The notes under the pieces are model-generated. The model was not told the DNA's origin and ran no database searches. It saw nothing but the letters and a program-made list of their open reading frames with translations. Both the position numbers and the translations under genes were made by a program. This document shows, piece after piece, positions 8,301 to 34,200 of a DNA stretch of 64,000 bases (positions are counted from its first letter, which is position 1; the number at the start of each line of letters is the position of its first letter). This DNA comes from Crassostrea angulata (Eukaryota), in the NCBI RefSeq assembly GCF_025612915.1, contig NC_069115.1:8359492-8423491 (forward strand), written 5' to 3'.

Positions 8301-11300
8301 AAGGGTTTGATTTTATTATACATATATTGCATAGCTATGTTTTACATAAAATTTTACATTAATTTTTCCTTTGATCACAGAAATATGACAAGAAATCAAA
8401 CAGCACACAGTTTGGTGTTTTAGAGATTCACGCTCTCACCAGAGTTACTGCCTTTGACAACAAGGACCCCCCACCGAGATTCTGCGTTTGTTCTCACTCC
8501 GGAAGTGTAGAGGATTTACAGGTGAGAATTACTGTGGAATCATTTTAAATTCGTAGGGTCCAATTTTCGAGAATAGTTGGTTTTGTGCTAATTCATGGAG
8601 ATGAAATTTCATGGATGCGCCGGTTTTCATTTTCAGTATTAAGAAAGATAACTCTTTCTAAATTTGTTTTCTTCAAGGAAAATGTAATCACAACAATAGC
8701 TACTGTGAATATACTGATGCTTATACACAAACAAGTTCTTATTAATAACAAAGATGTATAATTTATTTTTTTTATTCAATATTTGTGAATTATTGAAGAT
8801 TAAAATAAAAGTGATTGAAAAGGTGATTGAAAAACTGCAGACCTTAATTTTCCATTAAATTTTTAATTATTCAATAGAATTTGATGTAATGAGACTTTTA
8901 CCGTAATCAAACTTACATTTATTTTTAAAATTTAAATTTGAATTATTTGTTCTCTTATACATTTACCTCTGGTTAAATAAAGTACATGTATTACAAATTC
9001 CCAGGATAAAGGAGACGGTGGAAGCAAGGAGTACCGCTTCGTGCAGACGTCAGAGGAGGCCCTGAGTGTGTACAGCGCCCTCTATAAACAGATGAAGGAT
9101 CCCCCGAGTAGCATGAATGTCTGTCACAAACCTCCCTGTCAGAATATTGGAACCAAACAGTTCCAGAAGGTACGAGGTTTGATTCAGCCTATTAGAAATA
9201 ATTCACCATTCATTCGTGGTTAACATTGTGGGCTAAACTATAATTAGTTGTTGAATGTTTTCTTGTTTTTTCCAAAGTACTATAATATATTGTTTTTAAT
9301 CACAAATAAAACAGCTGATACTGGAGTATGGGATGGAAGAGACAGAGTTGTCTGCCCCTGTGGCAGAGTTGATGCAGCACATTTGGCGGGAGGCAGGGGG
9401 AGAGATCGAGCAAGTCCTGAGTAGTCCACTGCAGTCCATCAAACTGGACCAGGTGAGCTTCAGGCACCCCATAGTGATCAGTTTGTCTGTTTCTATGTTT
9501 CTTCCATTTTTCTTTTATGTTTTATGTTCAAAGTACATTGATTTATAGTCTAGTTCTTGAAAATGAAATTCTGACCAGATTACTTTTGGCACATTCAGGT
9601 TGAGAAGGCTACAGCCATTTTGACCCACATGAAGGAGAGCCAATCAGACAACAGCAAACTCCAGGCTCTGTTTGATGAGTTCTACACGGCCCTCCCTCAC
9701 CGACCTCAATACAGGACAACCAGCTTCTCCATGTCATGGCTGGCCAGGAAACTTGACCTATGTCAGGTATGAGTCTATGTCACTCAGGTATGCCACTATG
9801 TCAAGCATTACACTATGTCACTTTGTCAGGCATATTGCTATCTTAGTTATGCTAGTAATGATACTATGTCAGTTATAACACTATGACAGTTATACCACAT
9901 TATGTCAGGTTTACCATTAACTCCGATATTCCACTATGATGAACATTTTATATTGTTTCCTTTCAGCTAATCAAGGACGTAGTGTCAGTAAGTGAGGCCA
10001 CGAATTGGTCGACGCGAGGCAATGCCGAGGCTCAGTACAAGGCCCTCAGATGTCAGATATCCCACGTATCAGGAGGCCTACCCAGACAGGTCCTAGATAT
10101 CCTCAACCTGAAACAGTGAGTTTAGTACAATATTGTTCAAGATATCATTAATATTAATATCAGACCTAGAAGTAGATGTCTTCGATCTTGCATGTACATG
10201 TACTTCAATCAATCAGTGATATTCTCAATCTGAAATGGTCTGATGTATGTTTGCTTCATATAACAGAGGGGAAGAAATGAGAATTCAGAATGTATATGCC
10301 ATACATCGGCCCTCAGAGAGTGAGAAATTCCGCTCAGACCTGAGTTCCAGGCCGCTGTTTCATGCCTCCAATGCAGAAAACTTTGTTGGAATTCTTTCCA
10401 GGTAATAGCTTGTTAAATGTTTTATCTTTCCTTTTAAGTAGACACTTGGTGCATATTAAAGAAAACAAAGATTAGTGTATTCTCTAGTGTTGTTATGGGA
10501 AATGTTATATTACAGAGGTCTCCTAATGCCAAAGGTCGTCGTTGATGACTACGGAGGAAAGAGAACTGATCCAGGAATGCTGGGACATGGGATCTATTTT
10601 GCAAGCTCTGCAAGGTGTGTGTTTCAGCAGTTGTCTGAACGAAAATATCATAGGGAAGATTTGAAAATTTTATTGAGTTCATGGCAATATTTTTGTGTTG
10701 AAGTATATTATCATGTTTGTTGTGAAATTCAAATCAAAAAGGGTTAAAAAGTCATGGAAATTTGGCTTTTCAACCATTCCAGAAAAAAGTGCTTGTTTTA
10801 AATTATTGTTTTTCTATGGCCTGCAATTAAATTATAGTTATAAATAATTTTTAAAAATCATATTCAAAATTTTTAGTTTTATCTTAGTGGTAATTTGTCA
10901 ACAACCCAGCGACTTTTAATCAGACAATGACAGCTATTTTAATTAGTATTAAACTTTATGTTTGTTCTTTTAAACTCTTGATCTCTAATGATTCATCAAG
11001 ATTGCCTGAAGTTTGAATTATCAAAATTCACCTGTATTTATGATCATTGCATTTTTAAAGCCTATTCCCTGACCCTTGTGTTCTCTTTCATAACTTTATA
11101 GTACGAGCATAAAATACTCGAAACCAAGTAAAACCAGAAACACACGGATGATGCTTGTCAGCCAGGTGGCACTAGGAACCACACTGGACGTGTACAAACA
11201 TCAGCGGGACCTAACAGAACCACCCAGTGGCTACCATAGTGTCCATGGGGTGGCTGCCACAGAGGGGGTGGAGTCTGAGTTCCAGGTCAGTAGGTTGTAC

Positions 11301-14300
11301 TGATGGTCAGGGCAATGTCATTAAGTTTACGACAGTCAGAAAGTTAAGTTAGTCGTGTAGCGTATTAGTGGTCCATCTGTCTTCTTGTCTGTCCTCAGTG
11401 ATCCCTTTCAGTTTCAGTGTTATATGTTTCCCTTCTGCGTAACGCAGTTTTGCACCAAATTTTCATAATTTTCTGTGTTTATTTCTGTTCATTTGTTTAT
11501 TTTCTACTGGAAATGATAAAATAACTTATGTACATGAGACAAACTGTGTCACTAATTACAGTAAAACTCGGTAATAGCGAAGTCCTAGGAACCAATGGAT
11601 TAACTTCGTTATATCAATGATTTGTAATATCCATATAATTAACAAATTCGTACTTAAGTCTAATAACTATTATAATACTAGTAGTGAATTCACTATGTAC
11701 ATTATTTTTTTATCAGACTACAATTTTTGCTAATTTAGGGAAATACATTTTTTTTATACCGTTAAAGATCAGACTGTGAATTGAAGAATTTATATGAAAA
11801 TATTTACATCTACAAAGTATTATTCCCTCTATTTCTTATGGAAACCTATAGTTAAATCATAGCTCTATAGAAACAGCCAGACTGAAATCTACACGCCCCG
11901 TTTATCGATTGGTTGAAATCTACAGCTGCTGAAACTGATAAGAAACTGACAGGACAGATATTGACACGCCCTGTTTATCGATTGGTCCAAATCTATAGCG
12001 ACCTAGAAAAAATCATGGACTGCACGAAATAATCATAACGATGTCAGACTCAAAGTCTCACAGGAGACGATTTGGCTGTTTCTTTTAGCTAACATACTTA
12101 GTACGTACATTGACAGTAATTTAGTGAATTTTACTAACTTTTCATAATCAATTTATCAATTAGCTAAAAGAAAGATGTTAATATAAACAATAAAATGCTT
12201 TCTTTGTTGATTCATTCGGGTTATGAAGGTAGCAATCAATGCAGAAAAAATTTACATAACCCGCTAATTTAAACGCAGGTTATGTATTTTTTCTGCAATG
12301 TCGCTACCTTCATATCCCGAATGAATCAACAAAGAAAGCATTTTATTGTTTAGATAAATTCATTCAAACTTTTATGATAAATGGTAGTGCAGACTTTTTA
12401 AACTGAGTGTGAAGAAATAAGTTATAAAAGTGTCAAACTTTGTTATTATTCAGCTTTTACTGGACTCAAAATCAGTTCGCTCTGTCCGTAAATTTCTTAT
12501 GCCCAAATTTATTAAAACCGTCAAATTTCGCAAAGATTTGTAAAGAATTTTATCGGGTACTTAATCTGTATTTGTACTTAAGGAGTTTACTGTACTTAAA
12601 TTGTCCAAAGATTAAGGTCACTGACAGGTACATTTAGTGGTTTAATTATACTTGAGCAGTACTGCTTTATGAGATACCCTTTCTTAAAAAAATTATTGCG
12701 TTAACTTTAATATATAGAATGTTAGAATTTTTATTTTTATAAACATATTAATCAAACTTAAGGTTTAAATTGCTGAGTGTGTTTTGTTTATGCTTGTAAT
12801 AGGATGATGAGTTTGTTGTGTACAACACAGACCAACAAATGCTGAGTTATCTCGTTGAGTTCACCATTGGCAGTGAGATTCCTGTGGAGATATCTGTTGA
12901 AAAAGAGGCTTTAGAAAGGGAGGAAACTTTGTCAGAGAGCAGTATTGGTGAATGAATATTTTAGTAACTTATTTAGAATGAAATATTAAACATTACAATT
13001 TTCAATCTCCATATAAGAATAAAAATTCTTACGGGTAACTTATTTGTAAGTATATTATTTGAAAAAAGACTTTAAGATATTTCTTTGCATTGGTATTTCT
13101 GATATATAAAACAAATAAACAGTCAGTAAATAAACTGAAAATGTATTTCTTTGTATTTAATTAATTCTGATGCGTGATTTGTTAAGAACAGTTACAATTA
13201 AAATTGAATTCCAAGATATTTTGCTGGTTGATTTTGCAGACATCAGCGACGTACATGATGTCACAGACCCATTGACAAAGGTCAAGGCCGGCTTGGTTTC
13301 CAATGACGACACCCCAGTTACTCTACTTGAAGCCCATATACGAGCTAAATTGATTGATCTGGCCGGGGAGGTAAACAATGAAATACATACACTTTACGCA
13401 GTACTTACAAAATAAAGCCATTTCAACAAGAGCTTGGACTTCGGCAGTATCTGTCAAACTTGGATTTGATGAAGGCAGAGTCTACTCAAGGTCAACTGTT
13501 CAGTCATTGGCTTAATGATATGAAAACATTGAAAGGAATAACCTTTGTCCAACTTAATCCAGGGATGAATATTTTAGTTAAAACAGCATCAATGTCACAC
13601 AATCTAGCAGACCTTATTTTAAAAAAATCCAATTTTGACAGTCTATTAAATATATATATATATATATATATTTATAAGCTGCCTAAGGTAATCCAAAGAA
13701 GGAATTCAACATTTGACAGCTTGTTATGATGATTAAATTATATAATTACATCCCACCAAAAGCCAAAGAAGCCACATTTTTAAGGAGGTTTAGTGATAAA
13801 CAGTTGACCAGTGTGGTCATCTTCATACAAATTGAATGAACTTGTCACCACTGATAATTGGCTCAGTAAATTTCTATATCATTTATAGACAAAAACTATC
13901 ATGTGAAATCTTTATTTAAAGGTAAGAAAATTCTAAAAATAGCCATAACCAACAATCCTCATTTAAGTGAAAACTCAGAAGATTTTATGTTGCAATACTA
14001 AAACTGTATGTAAAAAAAATGAACAGAATACCTTTACAATGTTTGATTGTAATAGTACATCAGTATTTTGTTCGGTTGTCAGGTGGTGGTGTTACAAGAG
14101 TACCACAACAATGATTGATTGTAATAGTGCATCAGTATTTGGTTTGGTTGTCAGGTGGTGGTGTTACAAGAGTACCACAACAACTATTGATTGTAATAGT
14201 ACATCAGTATTTGGTTCGGTTGTCAGGTGGTGGTGTTACAAGAGTACCACAACAATGATTGATTGTAATAGTACATCAGTATTTGGTTCGGTTGTCAGGT

Positions 14301-17300
14301 GGTGGTGTTACAAGAGTACCACAACAACTATTGATTGTAATAGTACATCAGTATTTGGTTTGGTTGTCAGGTGGTGGTGTTACAATAGTACCACAACAAT
14401 GATTGATTGTAATAGTACATCAGTATTTGGTTCGGTTGTCAGGTGGTGGTGTTACAAGAGTACCACAACAACGATTGATTGTAATAGTACATCAGTATTT
14501 CGTTTGGTTGTCAGGTGGTGGTGTTACAAGAGTACCACAACAACGATTGATTGTAATAGTACATCAGTATTTGGTTCGGTTGTCAGGTGGTGGTGTTACA
14601 AGAGTACCACAACAATGATTGATTGTAATAGTACATCAGTATTTGGTTCGGTTGTCAGGTGGTGGTGTTACAAGAGTACCACAACAACGATTGATTGTAA
14701 TAGTACATCAGTATTTCGTTTGGTTGTCAGGTGGTGGTGTTACAAGAGTACCACAACAACGATTGATTGTAATAGTACATCAGTATTTGGTTTGGTTGTC
14801 AGGTGGTGGTGTTACAAGAGTACCACAACAACGATTGATTGTAATAGTACATCAGTAATTGCTTCGGTTGTCAGGTGGTGGTGTTACAAGAGTACCACAA
14901 CAACTATTGATTGTAATAGTACATCAGTATTTGGTTTGGTTGTCAGGTGGTGGTGTTACAAGAGTACCACAACAACTATTGATTGTAATAGTACATCAGT
15001 ATTTGGTTCGGTTGTCAGGTGGTGGTGTTACAAGAGTACCACAACAACTATTGATTGTAATAGTACATCAGTATTTGGTTTGGTTGTCAGGTGGTGGTGT
15101 TACAAGAGTACCACAACAACTATTGATTGTAATAGTACATCAGTATTTGGTTCGGTTGTCAGGTGGTGGTGTTACAAGAGTACCACAACAACTATTGATT
15201 GTAATAGTACATCAGTATTTGGTTCGGTTGTCAGGTGGTGGTGTTACAAGAGTACCACAACAACTATTGATTGTAATAGTACATCAGTATTTGTTCGGTT
15301 GTCAGGTGGTGGTGTTACAAGAGTACCACAACAACAGTGACCAGGCCCTGGAGGCTAAGTACGTCTTCCCGCTGGATGACATGGCCGCCGTGTGCGGTTT
15401 TGAGGCGTTCATCAACGGGAAACACATTGTTGGGGAGGTGAAGGAGAAAGAGACAGCCCACCGGGAATACAAGCGGGCCGTCCAGGAGGGGCATGGGGCG
15501 TACCTCATGGACCAGGACGAGGAAACGCCGGTAAGATCAAGATGTTCACTTTAGACACAATGGTAATAATATGATCAAGGTCAATCAACATTGCAGTTTT
15601 ATTGAAAATAAAAGCCAATTTCAATACATTTGTACTATTTAAATATCATGGTATACTAAAATTCCCCTCTTGTGAATATATCACCAAAATTATTATGACC
15701 CACAAAGTTCACAGTACTATGACTCACAAAATTTAAATAAAAGTCACTACGAAAATTACTCATTGACAATTTCAATATTATTTATACAATGTATATTAAA
15801 ACATCTCATTTGTGAATCTATAACCAAAATTACTTTGAATCACAGAGTTAAGTATATTGGCAGTCATATCTTTGTTACTGTACAGGAGGTATTCACGGTC
15901 AGCGTGGGGAACCTCCCCCCGGGGGCTGTGGTGGTCATCAAGATCACCTATGTCACAGAGCTACAGGTGGACGGTGACCTCATCAACTTCCGTCTCCCAG
16001 GCAGCGTGGCGCCATGGAAACAAAAATATGTTGACGCACCGGAATTCAAAGACAAGGTCTCTGATTCAACATTGATTGTTTGAATATTTATTGAAAGCTT
16101 CTTAAAGATTAGCTACAGAACCATAATTCTATGTATAAAGGTTGGATAAAACTGTGCCCTAGAATCCATCATCACAAATTTTTCTTAAGAGCTACTGTTT
16201 TTTCGGTTTTTCAGGCAATGAATTTAATAAGAAAATGTGTCTTTTTATGTAAATGTAGGACTGGGACACAGTCCAGGTGGAAGATACCTGCTGTAGTGTA
16301 CAGGTGTATGTAGACATGCCCTTTGTTATATGTCTGTATTTTTGTCTACTCTATGTTATAGGACTGGGATACAGTACAGGTGGGAAACACCTGCTGCAGT
16401 GTACAGGTGTATGTAGACATGCCCTTTGACATCCGGAGTCTGGAGTGTCCCACGCATAAAGTACTCTCCAAGGTAATCTATAGATACACTGTACAGTCAC
16501 TGCTCTGATATTACCTGACTGATCAAAAACAATTAATGAACTGGTATTTTCTAAGATTAAACTTTGAACATTTTGATGACATGAGCATAATGGTTAAAAT
16601 TAATAAGAAACACATTGGTGCATTTCAACCTTGTTGGGGTTTTAGAGCAATATTTTTCATGTAAAATAATGTTTGCAGAGAACGGCCACTAAGGCTGTGG
16701 TGGAAATTCCAGACGAGTCAGACCAGACATTGGAGGATGGATTCCAGCTTCTGATTGGTTTAGCAGAAATCCACGTTCCGCGGATGTGGGTCGAGTCGGA
16801 TGAAGGAGAGTCGCAGGTAGTTACAAGGAATTCTCATGAAATCAATTACTTTTATTTTTCAGTCATATACTGACAGTAGATGGAAATTCATAACATATGA
16901 TTTAGATTAAGTAATTTACAAGAGAACCCAGGTATATGTTAGCAAGCAAATTGCAATGAGTATAACTTATTGTTACTTCATTACTTTGTCATAGAGTGAG
17001 TAACGTTTAATTTTATTACTTTACATCAAGTTGAAATTTAAAGTACAGCATGTATGACCACAGAGCAATTTAAAAAAAAATCGAAATTCACTGAAAGTAG
17101 ATGAACATTACATTAGGGTTATCTATATTAGGCATGCATGTTGACCTTTTACCCTGAGTTTGAGGCTGATGAGGAGTCAGAGGTTGAGGTCATCCTGATG
17201 ATTGACAGCTCCAACTCCATGAAGGACTCCTCCCACCGTGATGCCAAAAAGGCTGCTCTCCTTGTGTTACATCTCATGGATCCAACATGGAGGTTCAATG

Positions 17301-17363: not shown

Positions 17364-20300
17364 TTAATTTATGGATATAGCAGTGTATTACCGGTAATTG
17401 TTTTTACAAACATACTGTTCCGGTTTATTTTCAGAGAATGTATTTCTCCCTTTTACTCTTGCAAACAGTTTTGCCCAGTTTTTGAATTGTGAGTTATTAT
17501 AAATGTACCTGTTGTAACTATTTGTCTTTTTTTTTTAGCATTCACAGAACTTTTCCCATTGAGTCAACCAGCCAGTAAATTCAATGTACAGACAGCAAAG
17601 CAGCATATTCAGGTCTGCATTTCACACAGGAAATATTATTTGTAGGCTTGCATGTTGTCGTTTAAGGTAATTTAAAAGAAAAAATTGTAAAAAGTTTGAC
17701 ATCTGTTGCAGAAATTACAAGCAAACCAGGGTAATACTGAACTCTACAGACCCTTACACTCTTACTACCTTCTTAAACCAGAGAGTTCCACCAGGAATAT
17801 TTTTCTTTTCTCTGATGGCTATATCAACAATGATGAGGATACCCTGGCCAAAGTTTCCCAGAATTCTCAACACACAAGGATCTTCACCATGGGAATCAGG
17901 TTTCTTAATTAAAAACTTCTTCTTTAAAACTTCAACACTGGTGTGAAAACATTTATCTGAGTGTCCTTGCATATTTTTCAGTTATTTAATTTAAAACTGT
18001 AACAGTTTTGATTACATTAAGTAAAGATTAATATGTATGATGTGCAGAATCATACCCTAATCTTTGGTAGGAAAAAAATGTACAATAACAATTGAAACAT
18101 TTTCTGTAAGTTTGAATGGTCAGGTGTAAAATGAAAAAAAAAATGATCAGGGTTTTTTTCCGTAATATTTCAATATTATGATATATGATAGAATAGTACA
18201 ATTAATATGGTTCGAGAGTGTTCGACTTTGTATTTGTTCAACTTTGTATTTCTGCCCACAGCTCTGTAGCAAACCGTCATCTTCTGAAAGCAATATCCAG
18301 GGTTGGAGCAGGTTCCTATGAATTCTATGATTCCAAGTTCAAATCTAAGTGGGAAGATAAGGTAAATTTTATGATACTCATTTCAAGTTTAAATCTAAGT
18401 AGGAAGTTTAAATTCAATTGGGAAGATATGGTAAACTCATACACTCAAAAATAAAAATTTTGTGATAAATAAAGAAACAATGAAATCAATGGGATTTCCA
18501 AATACTGGTATTACCTAGTAAATGATCAAGGTGTTTGACCTTTGTTTTTTGAAATATTGAAGATAAACTGTTTTTGTGGGTTTTTAGGTTAGGTCCCAGT
18601 TACAGAAAGCGGCCCAGCCGGTGCTTACCTCAGTATCGGTAGACTGGCGCCATGACGACCAGCACCCCGCACCAATACAAGCTCCGGAACAAATCACCGC
18701 TCTGTTCAGCAGCTCACGCCAAGTGATCTACGGATTCGTGGACAACTGCTACATGGTGACGTACAATCTCTTTTATGTTTGATTTCATTCCTACATAACT
18801 CTATAATGGTTTAATAAGTGTCTTTGATCTTGAATTTGTAACGTGCATCCTTTGATTAGTTACTAATGGTAACCTGACAACCCTTGAATATTTAGGTGGT
18901 TATATTAATTATCTAAATTTTCATCATTTTGTACACTATCAGATGTGTGTAGTATATGATTATCTGTTTTTCTCTTGAAATACAGGCTACTTTAAAAGCA
19001 AAGATTGGTGGTCAGGAGATATCTACTGTTGTCTCGACCTCTGACCTCAGTGTTACTAAGGGCAAGGTAAGAGATTGTTAGTAATGCATGAAATAGCAGC
19101 CGTTTTTTCACTGTTTATCATTTCCATGCACTTTCGTTCCAAGTTTTTCTTAAGTGATAATTGAATGCATGTAGTTCTTAATAATTCTTAATCAGAGATT
19201 GTTGAATATTTTTCTTATCACTGAAATCATGTGACTGTTTATTTTTGTAGTTGATGACAACCATGGAAGACTAATTATTGTCTTATTATATTAAACACTG
19301 TCAGATATTTTTATCTTTAGGGCTTAGTTCATTCTACAGTACAGAATGTATTAAATTTAAAGCAATTATTAAGCCTGCTGTAATTTTTGAGATGCTGCTT
19401 GTAGATGCTGCACAGATTAACTGCCAAGGGAGTGATCCGAGATTGGGAGGATGGAGTTCTCTCCCCTGATAGGACCAGTCATGAGGTAAATAATGGCAGT
19501 TTTATTCTTAGATCTTAAAGTTTTTAAAATTAGTTTTTGGCTTATATTTCTGGAGTTCAATTGACTTTAGTTAAAGTAAAATTAATGTACTTGTAACAAT
19601 TTTAACACCCCGAGTACAATAATTATTGAAACTAAATCAGCCAGTATCAGTTTCAGGTAGTAGCCTGCAATCTATGTAAACCAGTAGACTTTCAATTAAA
19701 TTTCTTTTTTTGGAAACTTTAAAGATTAATCATCATTAGTTATTTGAAAACAGTTTTTTTTACAAGGCAAAATATTGCTTTCACAAACCAGAATCACATT
19801 TCAGGAATAGCTTCCGATTCTACAATACTGCATGTGTTTGCTATCGCTTGTCTGTCACCTTTCGTCCTTTAAGCAGTCTAGATTGTGGTGTCAGCAAACA
19901 AAACATCAATGTATACCATTTATTCTCCGACCCATAGGCCCTTATCATATGATGCATCCTCATGATGCATATATTATGGCAAGAAAGACATAAAAAAATT
20001 TTAATGATCATAAAATGTAGTTAATATTTATTTTTTTGCTTTCTTTTCAACCCACAGGTTAAGAAGATGAACCTGAAACAATATGTCATCGAGCTGAGCA
20101 AGAGGTACTCCATTGTGACCTCACTGACCAGCTTTGTAGCCATTGAAAAACGAGAAAAGGTAAATGTTGTTTACTTTTATGAATCAAGTAGAATATGTTT
20201 GAAATTAAAGCAGGTGAATGGGGATGCTATGTCCCAGTTTTCATTTCAATTTCATTTAAGGTGACTTTTTGCTAAGATAGATAACTCACTGGAAATAGTT

Positions 20301-23300
20301 ACTCTGCATAATTGACTTATAGAATAAATAATTTATTTTTAACTGGGTTTTACAACGGAAAAATCTGGTCATTGAAATGGTGAAAATGGCGGGCAGGCAG
20401 GCGGGCTGCTGCCAAAAGGGTACCCTCATTGTACGGATAACTCCTCCTACAGTTTTCAAGATAGGAAGTTGTTCTTTTGTGGATCAATTATACATGTATC
20501 AGAGGTGTGCATATTGCTAGGATTTTGATTTCCGATGATTTATGAAAAAAATACCAGCTTTTGAACTTAGTCATTTTTTGGCAAAATATTGAATAAGGAT
20601 ACCCTCATTGTACGGGTAACTCCTCCTACAGTTTTCAAGATAGGAAGTTGTTCTTTTGTGGATCAATTATACATGTATCAGAGGTGTGCATATTGCTAGG
20701 ATTTTGATTTCCGATGATTTATGAAAAAAATACCAGCTTTTGAACTTAGTCATTTTTTGGCAAAATATTGAATAAGGATACCCTCATTGTACGGGTAACT
20801 CCTCCTACAGTTTTCAAGATAGGAAGTTGTTCTTTTGTGGATCAATTGTACATGTATCAGAGGTGTGCATAATGCTAGGATTTTGATTTCCGATGATTTA
20901 TGAAAAAAATACCAGCTTTTGAACTTAGTTATTTTTTGGGGAAAATATTGCATATAGAGTACCCTCATTGTACGGATAACTCCTCCTACAAGTTTCCAGA
21001 TAAGAAGTTGTTCTTTTGCAGATCAATTGTACATGAATCAGAGGTGTGCATATTCTATGATTTTGATTTTTGATAATTTATGAAAAAAAAAAAATACCAG
21101 CTTTTGAACTTGGTCATTTTCTGGCAAAATATTGCATATAGGGTACCTTCATTGTATGGATAACTACTCCTACAGTTTTCAAGATAGGAAGTTGTTCTTT
21201 TGCAGATTAATTGTACATATATCAGAGGTGTGCATATTCCTAGGATTTTGATTTCTGATAATTATATTATCTTCTCTCTCCTTGGCCCAATCTTGCTCAT
21301 CCTACACCCACAGAGTGCCTTTGGGTAAAGGGTGTGCAGTGACCTTAAACTATGTTTGAAAGGTTAAGGTCATAGCAGAATTATATAAAAAAATCCTTGT
21401 GGCATATCTTCTCTCTGTTTGGTCTAATCTGGCTCATACTTAACTCACAGAGTGTCTATGGTCAAAGAGTGTGCAGTTACCTTATATGAAGTTTGTAGGT
21501 CAAGGGTCAAGGTCATGTTGAACAACACAAACATCCTTTTCGGAGCATATTTTTTCTTTATTTTGGCTCTATGTGGCTCATACTTCACTGTGATAAAAAG
21601 AGCTTTTGAGTAATGGATTTGTAGTGACCTTGAACCAAGTTTCAAGGTCAAATGTGAAGGTCATAGCAGAACTCTATAAAAAAAAAATTGTGATCGAAGC
21701 ATATCTGATCTCCCTTTGCTCCAATCTAACTAATATAAAATGATACAAGGAACAGTTGTTCAGGTTAGCGGTGTGGCTGATTGGCCTCTTGTTTACAAGA
21801 TGAGGTTGCTATGATATCTATTTCAGGATGAGGTAATGATACAGGGTTGTCTCTAAGACCCGGGAGCCAGGGAATTCCCCCACCTATAATTCCTTAATTA
21901 CCCCCTTCTACTTTTTCATTTCCTCCTTCTACTTTAATTTTTAGAGACAACCCTGATGATATCACCAATATCTCAAGATGGTGTTAATGTTGTGGTGAAA
22001 TCTACTTCAGGATGAGTTTGACATGTGATGATACATGTATTAATTTCAGGATGGGGTTATTTTGTTGTATATTTCAGGATGAGGTTGATGTGCTATATTT
22101 TTCAGGATGATGCTGTTGTGTTCTATATTTCAGGATGAGGTTATCCCAGATTCTTTCCCAGATGTTGGGGATTTACTGATCAAAGAGGATGTAGATATGC
22201 TGAAATACCTTTCCTGGGACAATGAGGTAATGATCCAATTAAATCTTTCAAAATTAAAGAATTATGATTTTTGTTTAGTTATTATATGGCAGAAGGACTC
22301 AACACAAGACACAACACAATGAAATTTCTAAAGCTTTCAACTAACTGATTTTAACAGATTTAAAGGGACTTAGACACGATTTGAGCTCTTTTTTTTTCAT
22401 TTTTAATGTCTTGAGTGGTCAATAAGGATGTTTTTAATGCTTTTTCAAAATTTGAAAGTCAAATATCGAGTTACAAGCAAGATACAGAGGTTAAAATTAT
22501 TTGTTTTGTAAACAAAGCTCGAGTCTTGTTATTGGTTACATATGTCTTGTATTGGTAAACGTGTCAATCTAATGTTGCATTTTGTTGTTGGTAAAATTAT
22601 TTATAAACACATTGAATTAGTTTATCTTGTTTCCATACGTTATTTTGTCAAAGAAATGGTAATTTCTTTACTTTTCATTATTTGTAAACAATTAATTATA
22701 AGACTCAAGCTTTGTTTACATAACCTCTGAAAATAAATATTTTCTTAACTAATTTATTGAAAAACAAAATTATTAAGGAAGGAGTCTTTTCTGGTTTTCG
22801 ACTTGTCAAACGTAAATTTGATTAATTGTTCATTAAATCAAGATGAAAGGAAATTAAAATAGTATATTTTTCTTTCTTTTTTACTATCATACAACTTGGC
22901 ATAGAAAATTGTATTCAATGTTTAGAATGGAACAAGGACTATATTTTTGGCGTAGGAAAATATCACATGTTGCGCAATTCAGAATTGCTGCAGATTATAT
23001 ATATATAATGAGTCTGTTTTAGCATTTTAAAAACAATAACAATAATGTTGGAATTTTTTTTACTAATGTGAACTAATAATATGATACTTGGGTTTCAGAA
23101 TATGTTTTTAAAATATGATTTGCCTATCAAATAAAATTTTTATAAGCTTTTTAAAGCGCCCATTCTATACATTGATTTTTGTGGAAAAATCACTAATATC
23201 AGTTTTTCTCTCTTATGAAACGGTCAATATATTAGCTTTTCTGTCAATTTATATCTTTATATAAAGTCTTCATAATACATTAAAATTAGAAATGCTTTAT

Positions 23301-26300
23301 TATTGGAAGCATAAAAAAACAATCAAAATTTCTTCAAAATTTAAGAAATTTAGAGGAAATGCGGGCTAAGCAATATCAATTTTAGTATAAATATGTATTC
23401 CAATTTAGTAGTATAAGCTGATAGACACTCTCATGGTCTATGATTTCATTGAAGATTTGAATCTTCAAATCTTAAACAAATGTCTACAGAACTATAAAGA
23501 GCTACAATATTTTTATCACTCTTTACGTTGAGGGAAAAGGTAGTGACCTTGACCTGACCTTTATCCGAAAACAAAAAGGTCAAATTTAATTAAACTGATA
23601 GAATCATTAAGTAATATGATCCGTTTGACTGTGTCAAAATTTCATGCATTTCTTATTATAAGAAGTATGTTTGATAATGAAAAGACTCCATCCTTAATAC
23701 AGATTTTTTTAGGATTGGTGCATTTGTTACAAATCAAATTTAATATCCATGCAACATACAAATAAATGGCAACACAAAGTATTAGTTAATCTGAAAAAAC
23801 ATATTTGGGTCAGGGCAGGTAGGGAAAACCAAAAACACAACCTGTACTGCTTTGTAACGAACGTCGCATCAATTGTCGCATTGAATACTCCCTGGTAAAT
23901 CTATTCATATGGAGCGCAAAAGCCCTCGTGCATGAAATAACCAGTCTTAAAGTAAACCAGATTATACGAAAACTAACAGAAATTAACGAGGTTAAAAACG
24001 TAAAGAAATGAATTGTATTTCGCTTGTAATATGACTTATAACATTCAAATTTTGGTATATCATTCAATATACCCAAACTATGTTATACATAAAAATCAAA
24101 AATAAAATTTTCATTTAAAATCGTGTCTAGGTCCCTTTAAAGCACTTGAAAGCTTATTGATAAAATTAGGTCAACCAAAATTCATTGAACAGATCGTTTA
24201 AAACAAATTTTTAGATTAATTAAAACACTTTCTAGTTATAGAATTTAAGCCTTTTCCTGCTCAATGTCCAAGGCTGCCTATACAGGTTTTTCTGCAAAAT
24301 TTAATTTTTGTTTGTGTTGTTTTTCCATGTGAAAAACATATTAATACTTGCAAAAACAATTGAATTATTGAATTGATATTTTATTTATAATACGACTTGA
24401 GTTCGCATCCTCTTCTCTTTTGACTTTCTACAACTTCCAATAGTATATGTAGCACTTGCCACATATTTCTGGAATTTATCATATAGGAAACGAAAAATAC
24501 AGATTTGAAAAATAACCAATAAGATAAAACATGTATTCATTATCTAGCATTATATAATTATGTGAAGCTAACACTAAAAACAAAAATTGGTTGATGCAAA
24601 CTTAACCAGTTTATCTCTGGTAATTAGTGATATCATACCAACTAGAGTCATGGCCAACGAAAGTTGGTTCACAATATACAGAAAACTGTTGTTTTGTAAA
24701 CATGTCTAAATTTTTTATTCATTGACTGAAATAAGAAATGTTTTTACTACCGTAATTAGGCAGATACAACTTCCTATGAAGAGGACACATCATCAGAAGA
24801 AGGCACATCATCAGGAGATGAAGAAGAAGAAGAAAAAGAAGAATATGCAGAGGAATTGTATTCATTAGAATGCATGGTAAATTATGAGGTACAGTCCCTG
24901 AAACGTTCTACTTCCCCACTTGAACAGTAAACACACGCTGAGTGAATGGTGAACAGAATATGGTGAGCACTTATGAACGGTTAACAGTGAGCAAACGCAT
25001 AGTGCAAACGGAGCGCAAATGCAAGTGAAAAGTGAAATATAAGATTATCCTTGTTGTAATATCGTTATAAATGTTTACATTAAATTCTACTAAATGTGAA
25101 ATTCTGATTAATATGAAGACTCTGATGTGAAATGTAAGTTTCTTTCTACCTTTACACATGCGTTCTTTCCTCATTTTGTTGTAACTCTCAAAGACTGATC
25201 CTTTCACTTTGGAGTACCAAATGAAAATGAATGAAGCGGTACTTATTATAATGATAAGAGAATGCTGAACAAACGGTGAGTGCAAGGTGAAGGCTTTTTG
25301 AAAGCACAGTGAGCACTTTGTGAAGGATGAGTGCGAACGGACCAAAGAGCACAAGTTAAGGCATGGTGAGTACACTGTGAGGGCAGGGTGAACGCACAGA
25401 AAAATGGGAAAGTAGAAAGTTTCAGGGACTTTAAGAGTACGTAAATTTCTACCCGATCTAGTATTTTTGATGTTGAAATTTTTATCTGGTGAGACTGTCT
25501 GTCAGACGTTTTATATCTCTGTTTGGTATCTACTATGAATGTAATATGAGGGGTGTCCCAAAATAACCTACAAGGCAGAACACATAAGGTAATTTAAAAT
25601 CTGTTCCCTGCTATTTCATTAGACTTCAATTTTTCCTTCAATCACCATTCAAAAATTCAAACCTGTACTTTATTTATTTCTTGAAAAATGAATATTATTA
25701 AGTAACAACAAGTTATGCCAGGCAGCGCAATGTGACACGTTGAAAATGCCCAGTCAGACTCTATGTATTGGTGCTGAATCCTCAAAATCAATTACGATAA
25801 CATTTAGTAAATTTTATTTTCGAAAATATCTTTAAAAAAATATTTTCTTTTGCGCATTCAATATACATTTCTAGTTTTGGTTTATAAAATATTTTTTTAA
25901 GTACAAACAATCTGTCAACTCCAAACTTGCCCTGTATTTCATGTACTTGTTGTCTAATGTCCGACTTAACAAAATGTGTTGTTCAGCATTTTGATGTCCA
26001 TTTCTATCGACCAGGGTTTCTTTTGTAACTTACTGTCATCATTCTCGTCCCAATATTTTCAATTTTGTCAGACTACTAATTCACAAAATGCATTTCTAAG
26101 TTAATTTGTTAATTTATTTTACTTCAAAAGCCACTTTGTTTCAAGGTCTTTACAAAATGTTAGTTATTCAAATTCAGTTACCTCTGTGCTAGTAGCTGCC
26201 TCAAAAGCTTACATCGTAATTTTATTACGACTTAAACTTGTCAAAGAATGTGCTATAAAATCTTTGAAAGTTTTGTTACATTCAAAACATTTTCTCTGTA

Positions 26301-29300
26301 AAAAAAAAAATTATTAACAAATTTGAACATTTTTTTTATTTGAATTTGAAGATGGAAGAAGTGGGAGATTCCTATGAAGAATTTTTTGACGGAGGAGGAG
26401 GTGGAGGAGGAACAGAGAAAATTGAAAGTACTGAGGTATACATGTATATATAAATTATCATAACAGAAACTTGTTCCAAGGAGTCAATTCAGGTTGTGCT
26501 GCCAGGCCTAGATCATTAGATCAAAGGTCATTAGATGTTTCAATCAGGCCTGGCAACCACAATAGAATTATTTCATGATGATAAAATAATTATTATAATT
26601 TATGATGATGACTTTGGCTGACTACACAAGAGTCTCAATTGTCATCACGAATATTTCTTGCCTTAAACCAGTCTGGATGTAACAGGGCTTGGTCGTGATT
26701 AATATATAACATGATGATAAATATTAAATGATGATGAAATCATTACATAACCCATCTATTATTAAGGTAATAACATAACCCACCAATTATTAACTTTTTT
26801 AAAAGGTAATTTATTACAGAGCCCATATAAGGCCTCCAGATTACTTTAATTTTGATTGTTACTGAGTCTAAAATTTAAAGATTTAAATGTTGCAGGCAGG
26901 AACTAAACTTTTATTACAAGATAAATAAAGTTTTCTTATTAAAATTTTGAATAATCATAAATACCTGGTAATCATTACAGGGTTGTTCAATGTTGTCTGA
27001 TGATGATGAAGAAGACGACCTTCAACCCATAGTGATGGACATGGGCTCTCTCTTCATGAAGGCGGGGTTTGCTGGCGACGACACCCCTCGGGCCGAGTTT
27101 GAGACCACGGTAGGGCGACCCAGGCACCAGGGGGTCATGGTGGGCATGGGACAGAAGGATGCCTATGTTGGAAAGGAGGCCACAGGTAAGATAAATGTAA
27201 TCAAACAGGTTTCAGGTAGACTTGTGGAATCAAAGTCAATGGTAAGGCAATGAAATCATTGGTCACAGGTAAGACAATTTAATAAAAAAAAAAAAACACA
27301 GGTAAGATACTGTAAACAAAGGTCCAGATAAGACAATTTTTAAAACGTCACAGGTAAGATAAGTAAATCATAGGACACAGGTAAGACATGGTAATTTAAG
27401 GTTACATTACTTGTAAGACAAAGTGTTTGCTCTGGTAGGTTACATAAGACAGTGTGATTGTAGGTTACATGTAAGACAGTGTTTTAATTTATAGATTACA
27501 AACAAGACAATGTAATGGTAGGTTACAAAATACAGTGTGATCGTAAGTTACAGGTGATACATTGCAATCATAGTCACAGGTAAATACAGTTATGTAAATA
27601 ATTAAATATAGGATACAGGTAAGACAGAGTGGTGGTAAGTTTCATCTGAGACAGAGAGATAATTATTATTGTAGGTTAAAAAATAACCATTGGTTACAGA
27701 TAAGGTAATGTAAACAGAAGTCACAGGTCCCACTTAAAAAAGGACCAACAGGTTAGACTCACTCTCAGCTATAGGTAAAACAGTATGTCAGTCGTCATAA
27801 GTCACCAGATCACTCTCAGCTAGGTAAAACAGTATGTCAGTCGTCATAAGTCACCAGATCACTCTCAGCTAGGTAAAACAGTATGTCAGTCGTCATAAGT
27901 CACCAGATCACTCTCAGCTAGGTAAAACCATATGTCAGTCATCATAATTAGTCACCTGATATCTCAGATAGGTAAAACCATATGTCAGTCGTCATATAAG
28001 TCACCAGATCACTCTCAGCAAGGTAAAACAATATGGCAGTCGTCATAAGTCACCAGATCACTCTCAGCAAGGTAAAACAATATGTCAGTCATCATAATTG
28101 GTCACCAGATCACTCTCAGCTAGGTAAAACAATATGTCAGTCGTCATATAAGTCACCAGATCACTAGGTAAAACAATATGTCAGCCGTCATAAGTCACCA
28201 GATCACTCTCAGCTAGGTAAAACAATATGTCAGTCGTCATAAGTCACCAGATCACTCTCAGCTAGGTAAAACCATATGTCAGTCATCATAATTAGTCACC
28301 AGATCACTCTCAGCTAGGTAAAACCATATGTCAGCTGTCATAAGTCACCAGATCACTCTCAGCTAGGTAAAACCATATGTCAGCAGTCATAAGTCACCAG
28401 ATCACTCTCAGCTAGGTAAAACCATATGTCAGTCGTCATAAGTCACCAGATCACTCTCAGATAGGTAAAACAATATGGCAGTCGTCATAAGTCACCAGAT
28501 ATCTCAGATAGGTAAAACCATATGTCAGATGTCATATAAGTCACCAGATATCTCAGATAGGTAAAACAATATGGCAGTTGTCATAAGTCACCAGATCACT
28601 CTCAGCTAGGTAAAACAATATGGCAGTCGTCATAATTAGTCACCAGATATCTCAGCTAGGTAAACCAATATGTCAGTCGTCATAAGTCACCAGATCACTC
28701 TCAGCTAGGTAAAACCATATGTCAGTCGTCATAAGTCACCAGATCACTCTCAGCTAGGTAAAACAATATGTCAGTCGTCATAAGTCACCAGATATCTCAG
28801 ATAGGTAAAACAATATGGCAGTCGTCATAAGTCACCAGATCACTCTCAGCTAGGTAAAACAATATGGCAGTCGTCATAAGTCACCAGATCACTCTCAGCT
28901 TGGTAAAACAATATGTCAGTTGTCATAAGTCACCAGATCACTCTCAGCTAGGTAAAACAATATGGCAGTCGTCATAAGTCACCAGATGAGTAAAATAAGA
29001 GTTACTATTGAGGTTTTTCTTTTTACAAGTAGAATTTTTCAAAGTTTCTATTATACACATTTCATTTATTTCATTATCTTTGACTTTGGTAATAACTCTA
29101 TGCTACAGTAATTCAGTTACCATCATACAAAGATATTGTGAATTCAAGGTACAAAATGTTTGTGGAAATGGAAACTTAGAAAAGCTTACAATCATGACAA
29201 CTAATTCTAGTGTGTTCTTTTTACCAGGTTCCAAACCTATAGCTGGGAAAGTTTTAAAAGGAAAGTCACCAGGTATATTCACAAATGTACTACCAGTTAG

Positions 29301-31265: not shown

Positions 31266-34200
31266 CTGTGCAATCGTGTCCGGTCCATATCTTTCTTATG
31301 GAGAAACATTGGAAGTTCTTACTTCACACAAAGATTGCTTATGACCTAAGGGTGTGTCATGACCTTGACCCAAGGTCATTCGGGCAAGGTCAAGGTCACT
31401 GGCAGAAAAAGTGTAAAATTCGTGTCCGGTCCATATCTTTCTTATGGGGAAACATTGGAAGTTCTTACTTCACACAAAGATTGCTTATGACCTAAGGGTG
31501 TGTCATGACCTTGACCCAAGGTCATTCGTGCAAGGTCAAGCTCACTGGCAGAAAAAGTGCAAAATTCGTGTCCGGTCCATATCTTTCTTATGGAGAAACA
31601 TTGGAAGTTCTTACTTCACACAAAGATTGCTTATGACCTAAGGGTGTGTCATGACCTTGACCCAAGGTCATTTGGGCAAGGTCAAGGTCACTGGCAGAAA
31701 AAGTGCAAAATTCGTGTCCGGTCCATATCTTTCTTATGGGGAAACATTGGAAGTTCTTACTTCACACAAAGATTGCTTATGACCTAAGGCTGTGTCATGA
31801 CCTTGACCCAAGGTCATTTGGGCAAGGTCAAGCTCACTGGCAGAAAAAGTGCAAAATTCGTGTCCGGTCCATATCTTTCTTATGGGGAAACATTGGAAGT
31901 TCTTACTTCACACAAAGATTGCTTATGATTAAAGGGTGTGTTATGACCTTGACCCAAGGTCAATTGAGAAAGTTCAAGGTCATTGTTTCAAAAAAGCTAA
32001 ATTCTGTCTGTGTCATGTCTTGTATGAATGGAAATATAAGAAGCTAAAAATTAACAGTTTTCAAAAATAAAGCAGTTGTTATTTATAGAAAATGGACAGT
32101 GAAATAGATTCATCCAATATTTTCTATAATAGCAAAAATACACGCGTTATGATTTTTTTCTTAGCGGGGGGTATCAATTGTGAGCTTGCTCACAGTACCT
32201 CTAGTTTATATAAATATGTTTACTAAATTAAACAGATTTATCAAAATATTCATATCGTATCATGTACCTGGTGACATGTCGTATCATGTACCAGGTGACA
32301 TGTCGTATCATGTACTGGGTACTATGTCGTATCATGTACCTGGTGACATGTCGTATCATGTACCTGGTGACATGTCGTATCATGTACCTGGTGACATGTC
32401 GTATCATGTACCTGGTGACATGTCGTATCATGTACCTGGTATCATGTACCTGGTGACATGTCGTATCATGTACCTGGTGACATGTCGTATCATGTACCTG
32501 GTGACATGTCGTATCATGTACTGGGTACTATGTCGTATCATGTACCGGGTAACAAGTCGTATTATGTACCATATATTGTATTATGTACCGGATAACAGGT
32601 CAGTAGGAGATTTTAAATGTCTAAAGGAAACATAAAAAAAAATTACTGTATACAGGGAAATATTCCCCCCTGTTTTATTTTCGCCCCTTTCGCCCTCGTT
32701 GTCATTGGGCGAATTAATGACTGGGCAAGTTTCAATATCTCAAATTATCTGTTTTTAAACACAACTGTGTGCAGATGGGGCAAAACTTTAAGCAAGTGTA
32801 AGAAAGGCTAGTAATGAATTACACAATAAATTCAAATGTTAGTTATAAATGCATTGATTTGTTACTGTAAACAAAGACGACTGACCTTGGGCTACTAGGT
32901 ATTGTATACAGGGATATTTTCACCCGGTGTTATGTTTCCCTTTCAATGTCTTTCAACTTTTCAATATCAGGTCATGCACTCTATAATTATAATGATTTTT
33001 TTTTTGTTAAAGTTATAGGTTTAATAGTCCTTTATGACAGATTTCAGGCAGTTAGGTTGTCGTCGTTACAAATATTATGATTTAATTTTCTACTCCTTGT
33101 TTACATGACAAAGAATTGTGAGCCCTGTATCTTGCTTGTAACTCTACAACTGACTCTCAAATTTCATTTGATCATTAGATATACATTTCTAAAGCATTGT
33201 AAATAATAAAAACAGAAAATTGAATTTGACCAAAATCATGAGCGTGGTCCATTAAAATAAAATGATCTTTTACATTAATCAACTTCAGGAAGGATATCTA
33301 GTATAATTGGACAACCACTGTCTGCAAAAAATTTAAGAGTGGATACTTTTAAGCCACCAGAGGTACAACTCCAATCAGCTCCTTCTTCAATGTCTGGATT
33401 GGCATTACCCGGTGTGATGAGAGGGGGCGTTTCTTCCAGAAAGGTACATGGAAATGTGTCTAAAGGAGCAGTTCCAGCAGAGAAATCCAAAGGAGTTGGT
33501 TATGGGGCATCTGAAAGCTCTTTATCTGATCTAACAAAAACAGGATTTGGAAGGCTGTCACCACAGCCAACACAAGAAATATCTGAACAATCATTATTTG
33601 GATCAGGATTTGAAGTACCTCCACCGGAACAATCAAGAGATTTTCAATTTGGTCCATCATCACAAACAGGTCAGCCATCAGCACCTGCTGACCCAGTGTT
33701 TGGATCATCAACAGCAGGATTCGGAGCACGACCAATGATGGCATCACAGGCTATGGGAGGATCATTATTTGGATCAGGATTTGGAGCACCTCCATCGGAA
33801 CAATCAAGAGGTTTTCGATTCGGTCCATCACAAAGAGGTCAGCCATCAGCACCGGCTGGCCCAGTGTTTGGATCATCAACAGCAGGATTCGGAGCACGAC
33901 CAATGATGGCATCACAGGCTATGGGAGGATCGTTATTTGGATCAGGATTTGGAGCACCTCCATCGGAACAATCAAAAGGATTTGGATTTGGCTCCTCATT
34001 ACCCATGGTACAGTCATCAGCACCTCCTGTCCCAATGTTTGGATCATCAGCAGGATTTGGAGTACCACAACAGGCTGCTATGGGTGGATCGTTATTTGGA
34101 TCAGGATATGGAGCACCTCCATTGGAACAATTAAATGGATTCGGATTTGGTTCATCAATGGAACAGCCATCGCCACCTGGTGCTTCATCATTTGGGTCCT

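Follow-up and report, generated by a model that had tools for sequence, protein, structure and literature searches.

Host Gene and the Exon Downstream of the Array

The window, by which we mean the whole 64-kb stretch of DNA that was analyzed, is AT-rich eukaryotic DNA with numerous minisatellites (49 TRF rows). A PARP4-like protein is encoded on its + strand from ~6.4 kb on. When the open stretches between 17.1 and 24.9 kb were concatenated, they matched "poly [ADP-ribose] polymerase 4-like [Lingula anatina]" (E = 1.5e-133, 59% identity), and VIT/VWA Pfam domains were present in the concatenate. This Lingula protein was the best relative that we found, and none closer was detected.

The coding exon at 20058-20159 (+ strand, 34 aa) ends in phase 0 with GAAAAG/gtaaat (a slash marks the splice junction), as judged from its translation and donor context, and a tblastn HSP with the Lingula PARP4-like protein covers 20055-20159. 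It is followed by exon 26 (22134-22226, + strand, 93 nt, 31 aa), a conserved coding exon in phase 0 at both ends with the donor GAG/gtaatgatcc. Peptides homologous to exon 26 occur in the proteins of Lingula (…FIAIEKREKDEDMSSEGPRIEAILAEEDVDILPYIGW), Ridgeia (…VDTLKYVAWDDD) and Bulinus (…NVDILPYMSW), and in one unnamed protein. The junction between exons 25 and 26 is spanned by a BLASTP alignment with 55% identity.

The Lingula gene has an intron at the same position and in the same phase (GAAAAG/gtaaca … ataacag/GATGAAGAT). Its exon starts with GATGAA after the cag, and the orthologue confirms the position of the real junction. Judged from this conservation, exon 26, its first codons (Asp-Glu) and the preceding intron are ancient. 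We looked for repeats in the orthologous Lingula intron (~360 bp) and found none. The array described below is lineage-specific, as the brachiopod Lingula possesses the exon and an intron at the same position and yet lacks the array. Further sequences from the same locus were also sought. A look-up of the open reading frame across exon 26 returned no record, a degenerate pattern for an 11-aa peptide, used in search of an allelic or orthologous intron, had 0 matches in metagenome contigs, and a search for a second allele or individual of the array found none.

A Tandem Array of the Intron/Exon Boundary

Upstream of exon 26, the intron contains seven in-register copies of a unit of about 28 nt, and the real junction is the eighth unit. 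Each unit corresponds to ~17 nt of intron end, with pyrimidine tract and CAG, followed by ~11 nt of exon start (GATGAGGTT). TRF reports an array at 22043-22144 with a period of 28 nt, 3.6 copies and 78% matches, which ends 11 nt inside the exon. The older copies were found by a repeat search, with start positions at 21796, 21824, 21974 and 22008. With a 120-bp insertion (21842-21961) removed, the start-to-start spacing of the units is 28, 30, 34, 39, 28, 28 and 28 nt. Indels and an inverted-repeat element of 114 bp separate the four older copies.

All copies lie on the + strand. Copy 1 (21794-21821) reads tacaa/GATGAGGTTGCTATGATATCTAT, with tacaaGATGAGGTT as its core at 21794-21807, and has lost its AG (CAA). 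Copy 2 is in register with copies 1 and 3 and is split by the insertion; its 5' part at 21822-21841, described in the sequence-only reading as a fused acceptor and donor, is ttcag/GATGAG/GTAATGATA, and its 3' part is TCACCAATAT at 21962-21971, beyond the insertion. Copy 3 (21972-22005, 34 nt), supported by the direct-repeat search and by the flank test described below, reads ctcaa/GATGGTGTTAATGTTGTGGTGAAATCTAC and has also lost its AG; its core is ctcaaGATGGTGTT at 21972-21985, with CAA for CAG. Copy 4 (22006-22044, 39 nt, ttcag/GATGAGTTTGACATG...) contains insertions and has kept its AG, and is identified by motif count, repeats and the flank test. Copies 5, 6 and 7 (22045-22128) are exact 28-nt units detected by TRF, each with tttcag/GATG(G/A)(G/T)G, and from -10 to +9 copy 6 does not differ from the real junction. 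The sequence (t)ttcag/GATG is retained in copies 2, 4, 5 and 7, while copies 1 and 3 are without AG. The terminal unit, ttcag/GATGAGGTTAT at 22129-22144, is the real junction, as indicated by the end of the TRF array at 22144 and by the position and phase of the Lingula intron. The sequence-only reading had listed copies at about 21790, 21826, 22010, 22050, 22078 and 22100, all of which are present, and had missed the one at 21974 (copy 3).

The insertion in copy 2 is a MITE-like element of 114 bp (21842-21955, no strand assigned), which was found by an inverted-repeat search. Its terminal inverted repeats (TIRs) are perfect over 15 nt (CAGGGTTGTCTCTAA at 21842-21856 and TTAGAGACAACCCTG at 21941-21955, 15/15 matching), and it is flanked by direct copies of ATGATA (21836-21841 and 21956-21961), which we read as a 6-bp target-site duplication. 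Once 120 bp are removed, that is, the insertion and one ATGATA, the array becomes continuous. The segment 21842-21955 thus has the features by which MITEs are recognized, namely a short element with TIRs and a target-site duplication. No further copies of it were found in the 64-kb window, and its terminal sequence had 0 matches in metagenome contigs. By its structure, it appears to be a small terminal-inverted-repeat element that was probably mobile.

True Duplication Rather Than Chance Recurrence

In an AT-rich intron, where acceptor-like strings are frequent, a low-complexity motif of the tttcagga type could in principle recur by chance in T-rich sequence. The motif count, the periodicity and the homology of the flanks refute this possibility, and we consider its probability practically negligible. 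Allowing up to one mismatch, we located the 12-nt core TTCAGGATGAGG on the + strand at 21822, 22006, 22045, 22073, 22101 and 22129, the last of these being the real junction. Over the whole window, 7 matches were observed versus 0.28 expected, and 0 of 100 shuffles reached 7. The period of 28 nt is strict: with the insertion removed, self-identity at lag 28 was 0.525, compared to 0.292 +/- 0.059 at other lags, and rose to 0.667 in the young part of the array.

For comparison of whole units, the real junction was taken as a circular unit (TTCAG GATGAGGTT + GTTGTGTTCTATAT). From copy 1 to copy 7, the number of matches to this reference was 21, 22, 20, 25, 24, 24 and 26 of 28 (71-93% identity), and identity to the real junction declines with distance from the exon. 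In the flank test, only the 16 or more nucleotides outside the 12-nt core were scored, and the scores were compared with those of 5000 random intron segments. Copies 5-7 each scored above all 5000 controls. Copies 1-4 gave p = 0.0008, 0.065, 0.029 and 0.028 singly, and their sum again exceeded all 5000 controls; an earlier and cruder version of the flank test had given weaker values (p ~0.03-0.11).

The copies are real duplicates of a unit of ~28 nt with common flanks. The sequence-only reading had proposed degenerate copies of the acceptor and start of exon 26 upstream of the exon, and we find all of the listed strings there, with shared flanks and shared periodicity. It had also suggested a self-comparison as the analysis that could expose the copies as chance matches of low complexity; the outcome does not support such matches, as the non-core parts of the units match the upstream sequence of the real junction.

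Copy 2 and Its Resemblance to the Donor Site

Copy 2 contains a stretch of 13 nt, ATGAGGTAATGAT, that is identical to the 3' end of the exon together with its donor at 22222-22234. Within the window, the stretch is found at these two sites only, and its score was reached by 4 of 3000 shuffles, a comparison that was made post hoc. The sequence ttcag/gatgag/gtaatgata had been noted at about 21826 and had been interpreted as the exon with its interior deleted. The string itself (21822-21841) and the 13-nt identity with the donor are real, and the interpretation is unsupported. In its fuller form, it would make copy 2 a duplicate of the whole exon that collapsed by an internal deletion between two ATGAGGT strings, and possibly a 6-nt in-frame microexon adding Asp-Glu. 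The unique 13-nt identity speaks for such an origin, as does the donor 9-mer GAG/GTAATG, which is the same as in the real donor, and inclusion of the six nucleotides would preserve the frame. Indeed, the flanking AG/GT and the frame of the candidate microexon GATGAG would satisfy the sequence requirements.

Four observations on copy 2 itself argue against the collapsed exon. Copy 2 lies in register with the 28-nt array, 28 nt after copy 1 and 30 nt before copy 3 when the insertion is removed. The identity with the donor ends after 13 nt: the additional 'ca' belongs to the TIR of the inserted element and 'atgata' to the target-site duplication, and after removal of the element there is no match into the downstream intron. 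Copy 2 aligns to copy 1 with one 3-nt gap (GGTTGCTATGATATC versus GGT, the gap and AATGATATC), and the two copies have ATGATATC in common, which the donor region lacks. Finally, exon position +9 has the exon-like T (GGTT) in 6 of the 7 pseudo-copies and an A in copy 2 only, and because of this distribution GGTA is derived and not ancestral. A microexon is also disfavored on general grounds, since exons of six nucleotides are seldom recognized without special enhancers. Taken together, we regard the collapsed exon as very unlikely; GGTAATGAT is more plausibly a derived unit variant whose likeness to the donor is accidental.

Predicted Consequences for Splicing

Five of the upstream copies carry an AG (exon-side positions 21827, 22011, 22050, 22078 and 22106), in contexts very near that of the real acceptor. 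If the upstream exon is joined to any of these five pseudo-acceptors, a stop codon follows within 5-10 codons. In 28-nt units the stop is automatic, because 28 = 3 x 9 + 1, so that cagGATGAg of the next unit is read as ..A GGA TGA. On translation, an open reading frame is obtained from the exon-proximal acceptor only.

As read from the sequence, the vicinity of the real site contains a single good branch-point-like motif, TTGAT in copy 6 (22085-22089). Since 16 nt separate this motif from the AG of copy 7 downstream, a simple rule of scanning for the first AG would select copy 7 over the real site, which weighs against silence of the pseudo-sites. The pseudo-sites are most likely silent, or they may give rise to minor transcripts that are cleared by nonsense-mediated decay. 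A search of 20200-24800 against Rfam families gave no match at E <= 1, and the predicted fold of 21990-22240 was not unusual (z = 0.06).

Other Junction-Anchored Repeats in the Window

The same PARP4-like gene contains a second acceptor array, at the VIT exon (exon 14 in the sequence-only reading). It consists of 18 copies of a 72-bp unit with 96% matches and ends with the acceptor and the initial ~30 nt of that exon, at 15306; the unit comprises ~40 nt of intron, the acceptor and the same ~30 nt of exon. The two arrays had been described as the same phenomenon, with the one at exon 26 older, and this is borne out, as both units are composed of intron end, acceptor and exon start, and matches amount to 78% in the exon-26 array versus 96% in the VIT-exon array.

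Repeats of donor junctions are present as well, so that at least five exon junctions other than that of exon 26 carry such repeats in the window. Degenerate copies of CTATGTCAG/GTATG follow the donor at 9766, one to two copies of an exon end with its donor follow the donor at 18362, at least five copies of CACAG/GTAAGA follow the donor at 27186, and about ten copies of ACAG/GTAA with a 29-nt period follow the donor of a kinase gene at 57516.

When 12-mers with four or more local copies were scanned for without use of annotation, 4 of 11 regions began or ended on an exon junction. Among about 20 non-coding TRF arrays with periods of 12-80, a real junction was located inside the coordinates of 4, or of 6 if the looser cases at 18362 and 27186 are counted. 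Under random seeding, one would expect J x sum(u)/L, that is ~120 x 523 / 64000 or about 1, where the number of junctions J (~120) is a guess. A rough Poisson estimate then gives p ~0.02 (4 arrays) to ~0.0005 (6 arrays), which is to be read as a lead only, being post hoc and dependent on the guessed junction number. Local repeats occupy ~6% of the window positions; this fraction is an unsuitable null model for junction seeding, and the estimate of enrichment is accordingly rough. Over-representation of junction-anchored arrays in the window is not predicted by pure neutrality. A tentative idea, which we consider rather improbable, is that in this genome short tandem duplications are seeded preferentially at splice junctions, or are more often retained there.

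Origin and Possible Function of the Array

The simplest origin of the array at exon 26, and a probable one, is serial tandem duplication, through replication slippage or unequal exchange, of a segment of ~28 bp across the intron/exon boundary. One intact copy would have been left beside the rest of the exon, allowing the gene to survive, and the surplus copies would have stayed behind within the intron as pseudo-acceptors. Decay is seen in the four oldest copies, with loss of two AGs, indels and the splitting of one copy by the 114-bp inverted-repeat element, and the three youngest are still near-identical to the real site. We considered whether the initial slippage could have paired tttcagGATG with the tttcccagATG of the exon, 28 nt downstream, and rejected this, as the units do not contain exon positions +12 to +23. 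It was also considered whether exon 26, which has GATG at 27-nt intervals, is itself an exonised piece of the minisatellite; this, too, was rejected, given the conservation of the peptide and of the intron position in Lingula, Ridgeia and Bulinus.

A functional alternative is that the array acts as a set of decoys, either by producing regulated, stop-containing transcripts that undergo nonsense-mediated decay, or as a sink for 3' splice-site factors that tunes inclusion of the exon. Five near-consensus acceptors that each lead to a stop within 10 codons are what such a role would call for, and a second, far larger acceptor array in the same gene and an apparent surplus of junction-anchored arrays across the window point in the same direction. 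The core of the units is also somewhat better conserved than the rest: identity is 89% within TTCAGGATGAGG and 78% outside it (permutation p ~0.012), in a comparison that is biased by the core-anchored alignment. The better-kept core hints at constraint or at repeated re-seeding from the real site and, given this bias, is not strong evidence of selection. On the other hand, 2 of the 7 copies are without AG and the units become more degenerate with distance, which is what an absence of selection would produce, and the Lingula orthologue does without the array. The stops need no selection either, since they arise from GATGAG being read one base out of frame at a 28-nt period. A function as decoys is therefore unsupported and, in our view, unlikely, though less so than the collapsed-exon interpretation of copy 2. 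In isolation, the array at exon 26 most likely represents a neutral by-product of DNA slippage, with no function of its own. Overall, we favor, with a probability of roughly three in four, a lineage-specific intronic minisatellite that was formed by junction duplication at an ancient PARP4-like exon, with pseudo-sites that are most likely silent and without function.

Comparison With Known Systems

Tandem acceptors of the NAGNAG type lie 3 nt apart (up to ~12 nt for short-range tandem acceptors in general) and give rise to in-frame protein variants. Like the present array, they offer a choice of AGs at an exon start. We rejected an assignment to this class, as the spacing here is 28-39 nt and every alternative leads to a premature stop. 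Recursive splice sites, (Y)nCAG/GTRAGT, do not apply either: CAG is followed by GATG in every copy, and in copy 2 the GT comes 6 nt later. Tandem exon duplication, as in mutually exclusive exons, was likewise rejected, as the units include just ~11 nt from the start of the 93-nt exon.

The gain of introns through tandem duplication of exon segments with AGGT (e.g., Hellsten et al., 2011, PMC3265369) is similar in that a short duplication creates splice signals. In that system, however, the duplication lies inside an exon and a new intron results, whereas the exon-26 array adds pseudo-sites within an ancient intron. Intron gain was accordingly excluded for exon 26, as the intron is ancient and occurs in Lingula at an identical position and in the same phase.

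The closest natural precedent is intron 7 (IVS7) of human F7, where the first unit of a 37-bp minisatellite spans the exon 7 donor (PMC1557585). There, the real donor is followed by 5-9 identical pseudo-donors that are competent and yet silent, and the exon-proximal site alone is used (PMC1557585). As in F7, the array at exon 26 is a head-to-tail minisatellite (with units in the range of ~10-100 bp), its terminal unit is the authentic junction, and a row of identical or near-identical pseudo-sites is present in the intron. Use of the exon-proximal site, which is observed in F7, would also be required at exon 26 for a productive mRNA. The two cases differ in orientation, with a donor and a downstream array in F7 and an acceptor and an upstream array at exon 26, and in the state of their units, which are near-identical and polymorphic (5-9 copies) in F7 and 71-93% identical, partly decayed and interrupted by an insertion at exon 26. 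The exon-26 array is thus the acceptor-side mirror image of the F7 case, older and partly decayed.

Tandem duplications of donors or acceptors were also engineered in a globin gene in early experiments that are cited in the F7 report (PMC1557585). The globin acceptor constructs are similar in that tandem duplicated acceptors compete for one upstream donor. They were artificial two-copy constructs, whereas the exon-26 array is natural, has eight copies and is accompanied by the 18-copy array in the same gene.

Near-identical splice sites in natural arrays provide a rare opportunity to study how the spliceosome selects one of several equivalent sites. In the classic example, human F7, donors are repeated; here, it is acceptors, twice in one gene (8 and 18 copies), and donor arrays are found in the same 64 kb. 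The arrays at exon 26 and at the VIT exon offer natural models for exon-proximal choice versus first-AG scanning at 3' splice sites. If the excess of junction-anchored arrays is real, it would imply either a junction-associated duplication mechanism or selection for arrays of pseudo-splice sites as decoys, as U1/U2AF sinks or for regulated unproductive splicing. If it holds genome-wide, it would point to an unrecognized mutational bias, or to a use for arrays of pseudo-sites.

Tandem copies of acceptor junctions

In the PARP4-like gene, a 72-bp tandem array (14036-15335; 18.1 copies, 96% matches) extends into the conserved VIT-domain exon that begins at 15306. Its unit comprises about 40 nt of intron, including a branch-point-like TTGAT motif, then the acceptor ttgtcag, then the initial ~30 nt of exon sequence (GTGGTGGTGTTACAAGAGTACCACAACAAC). 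The real acceptor is therefore preceded by 17 near-perfect complete pseudo-acceptors. In the exon's reading frame, each unit meets a TGA after about 11 codons.

Seven degenerate junction copies of ~28 nt precede exon 26 of the same gene (22134-22226, + strand). Within this exon, tttcccagATG (22154-22165) forms an imperfect direct repeat with the tttcagGATG of the junction 27-28 nt upstream, and this spacing equals the period of the array. The pair could have provided the microhomology for the first slippage event. Slippage between the two motifs was considered but is not supported, as the array units are without the exon sequence that separates them.

A 114-bp element (21842-21955) splits copy 2 of the exon-26 array. 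Its 15-nt terminal inverted repeats match perfectly, its target duplication is 6 bp long (ATGATA), and it contains a 21-nt direct repeat (21894-21935). Neither the 64-kb window nor metagenome contigs yielded a further copy of the element.

Repeats downstream of donor sites

Donor junctions are also repeated (splice sites are marked by a slash). About six degenerate repeats of CTATGTCA..CAGGTATG come after the donor ctatgtcag/gtatga at the exon end at 9766 (9758-9916); the periods given by TRF are 17-21 nt. At the end of a protein-kinase-like exon (57516), attcacag/gtaatgtagg is followed by about ten ACAG/GTAA copies with a 29-nt period (57508-57760), whose degeneracy grows with distance from the exon. 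One or two degenerate copies directly follow the exon end and donor ttcaagttcaaatctaagtgggaagataag/gtaaat, encoding KFKSKWEDK (18335-18435); the degenerate repeat reads …ttcaagtttaaatctaagtaggaag… gggaagatatg/gtaaac.

Downstream of the donor ccacag/gtaagata at 27186, at least five more CACAG/GTAAGA(C/T) copies occur at irregular spacing (27179-27590). Next come an array of 25-nt units (27435-27552) and, after it, a 49-nt satellite of 25 copies (27759-28987), and TAGGTAAAA is also present in the satellite unit.

By eye, the exon at 26972-27186, which lies downstream of exon 26 on the same strand, is clearly similar to the N-terminus of actin. Exons farther downstream (38353-40775) resemble the Hsp70 substrate-binding domain. 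These exons may be part of the PARP4-like gene or may belong to a separate actin/Hsp70-fold gene. A single open stretch of 605 codons (33279-35093, + strand) contains Gly/Ser/Phe-rich internal coding repeats (…FGSGF…) of 159-168 nt (TRF 33590-34259).

Frequency of junction-anchored repeats

Across the whole window, a real splice junction lies inside the coordinates of 4 of the ~20 short-unit TRF arrays, or of 6 when looser cases are included. Random seeding would be expected to give about one such array, a rough, post hoc estimate that assumes ~120 junctions. Short tandem repeats anchored at splice junctions look over-represented in the window as a whole.
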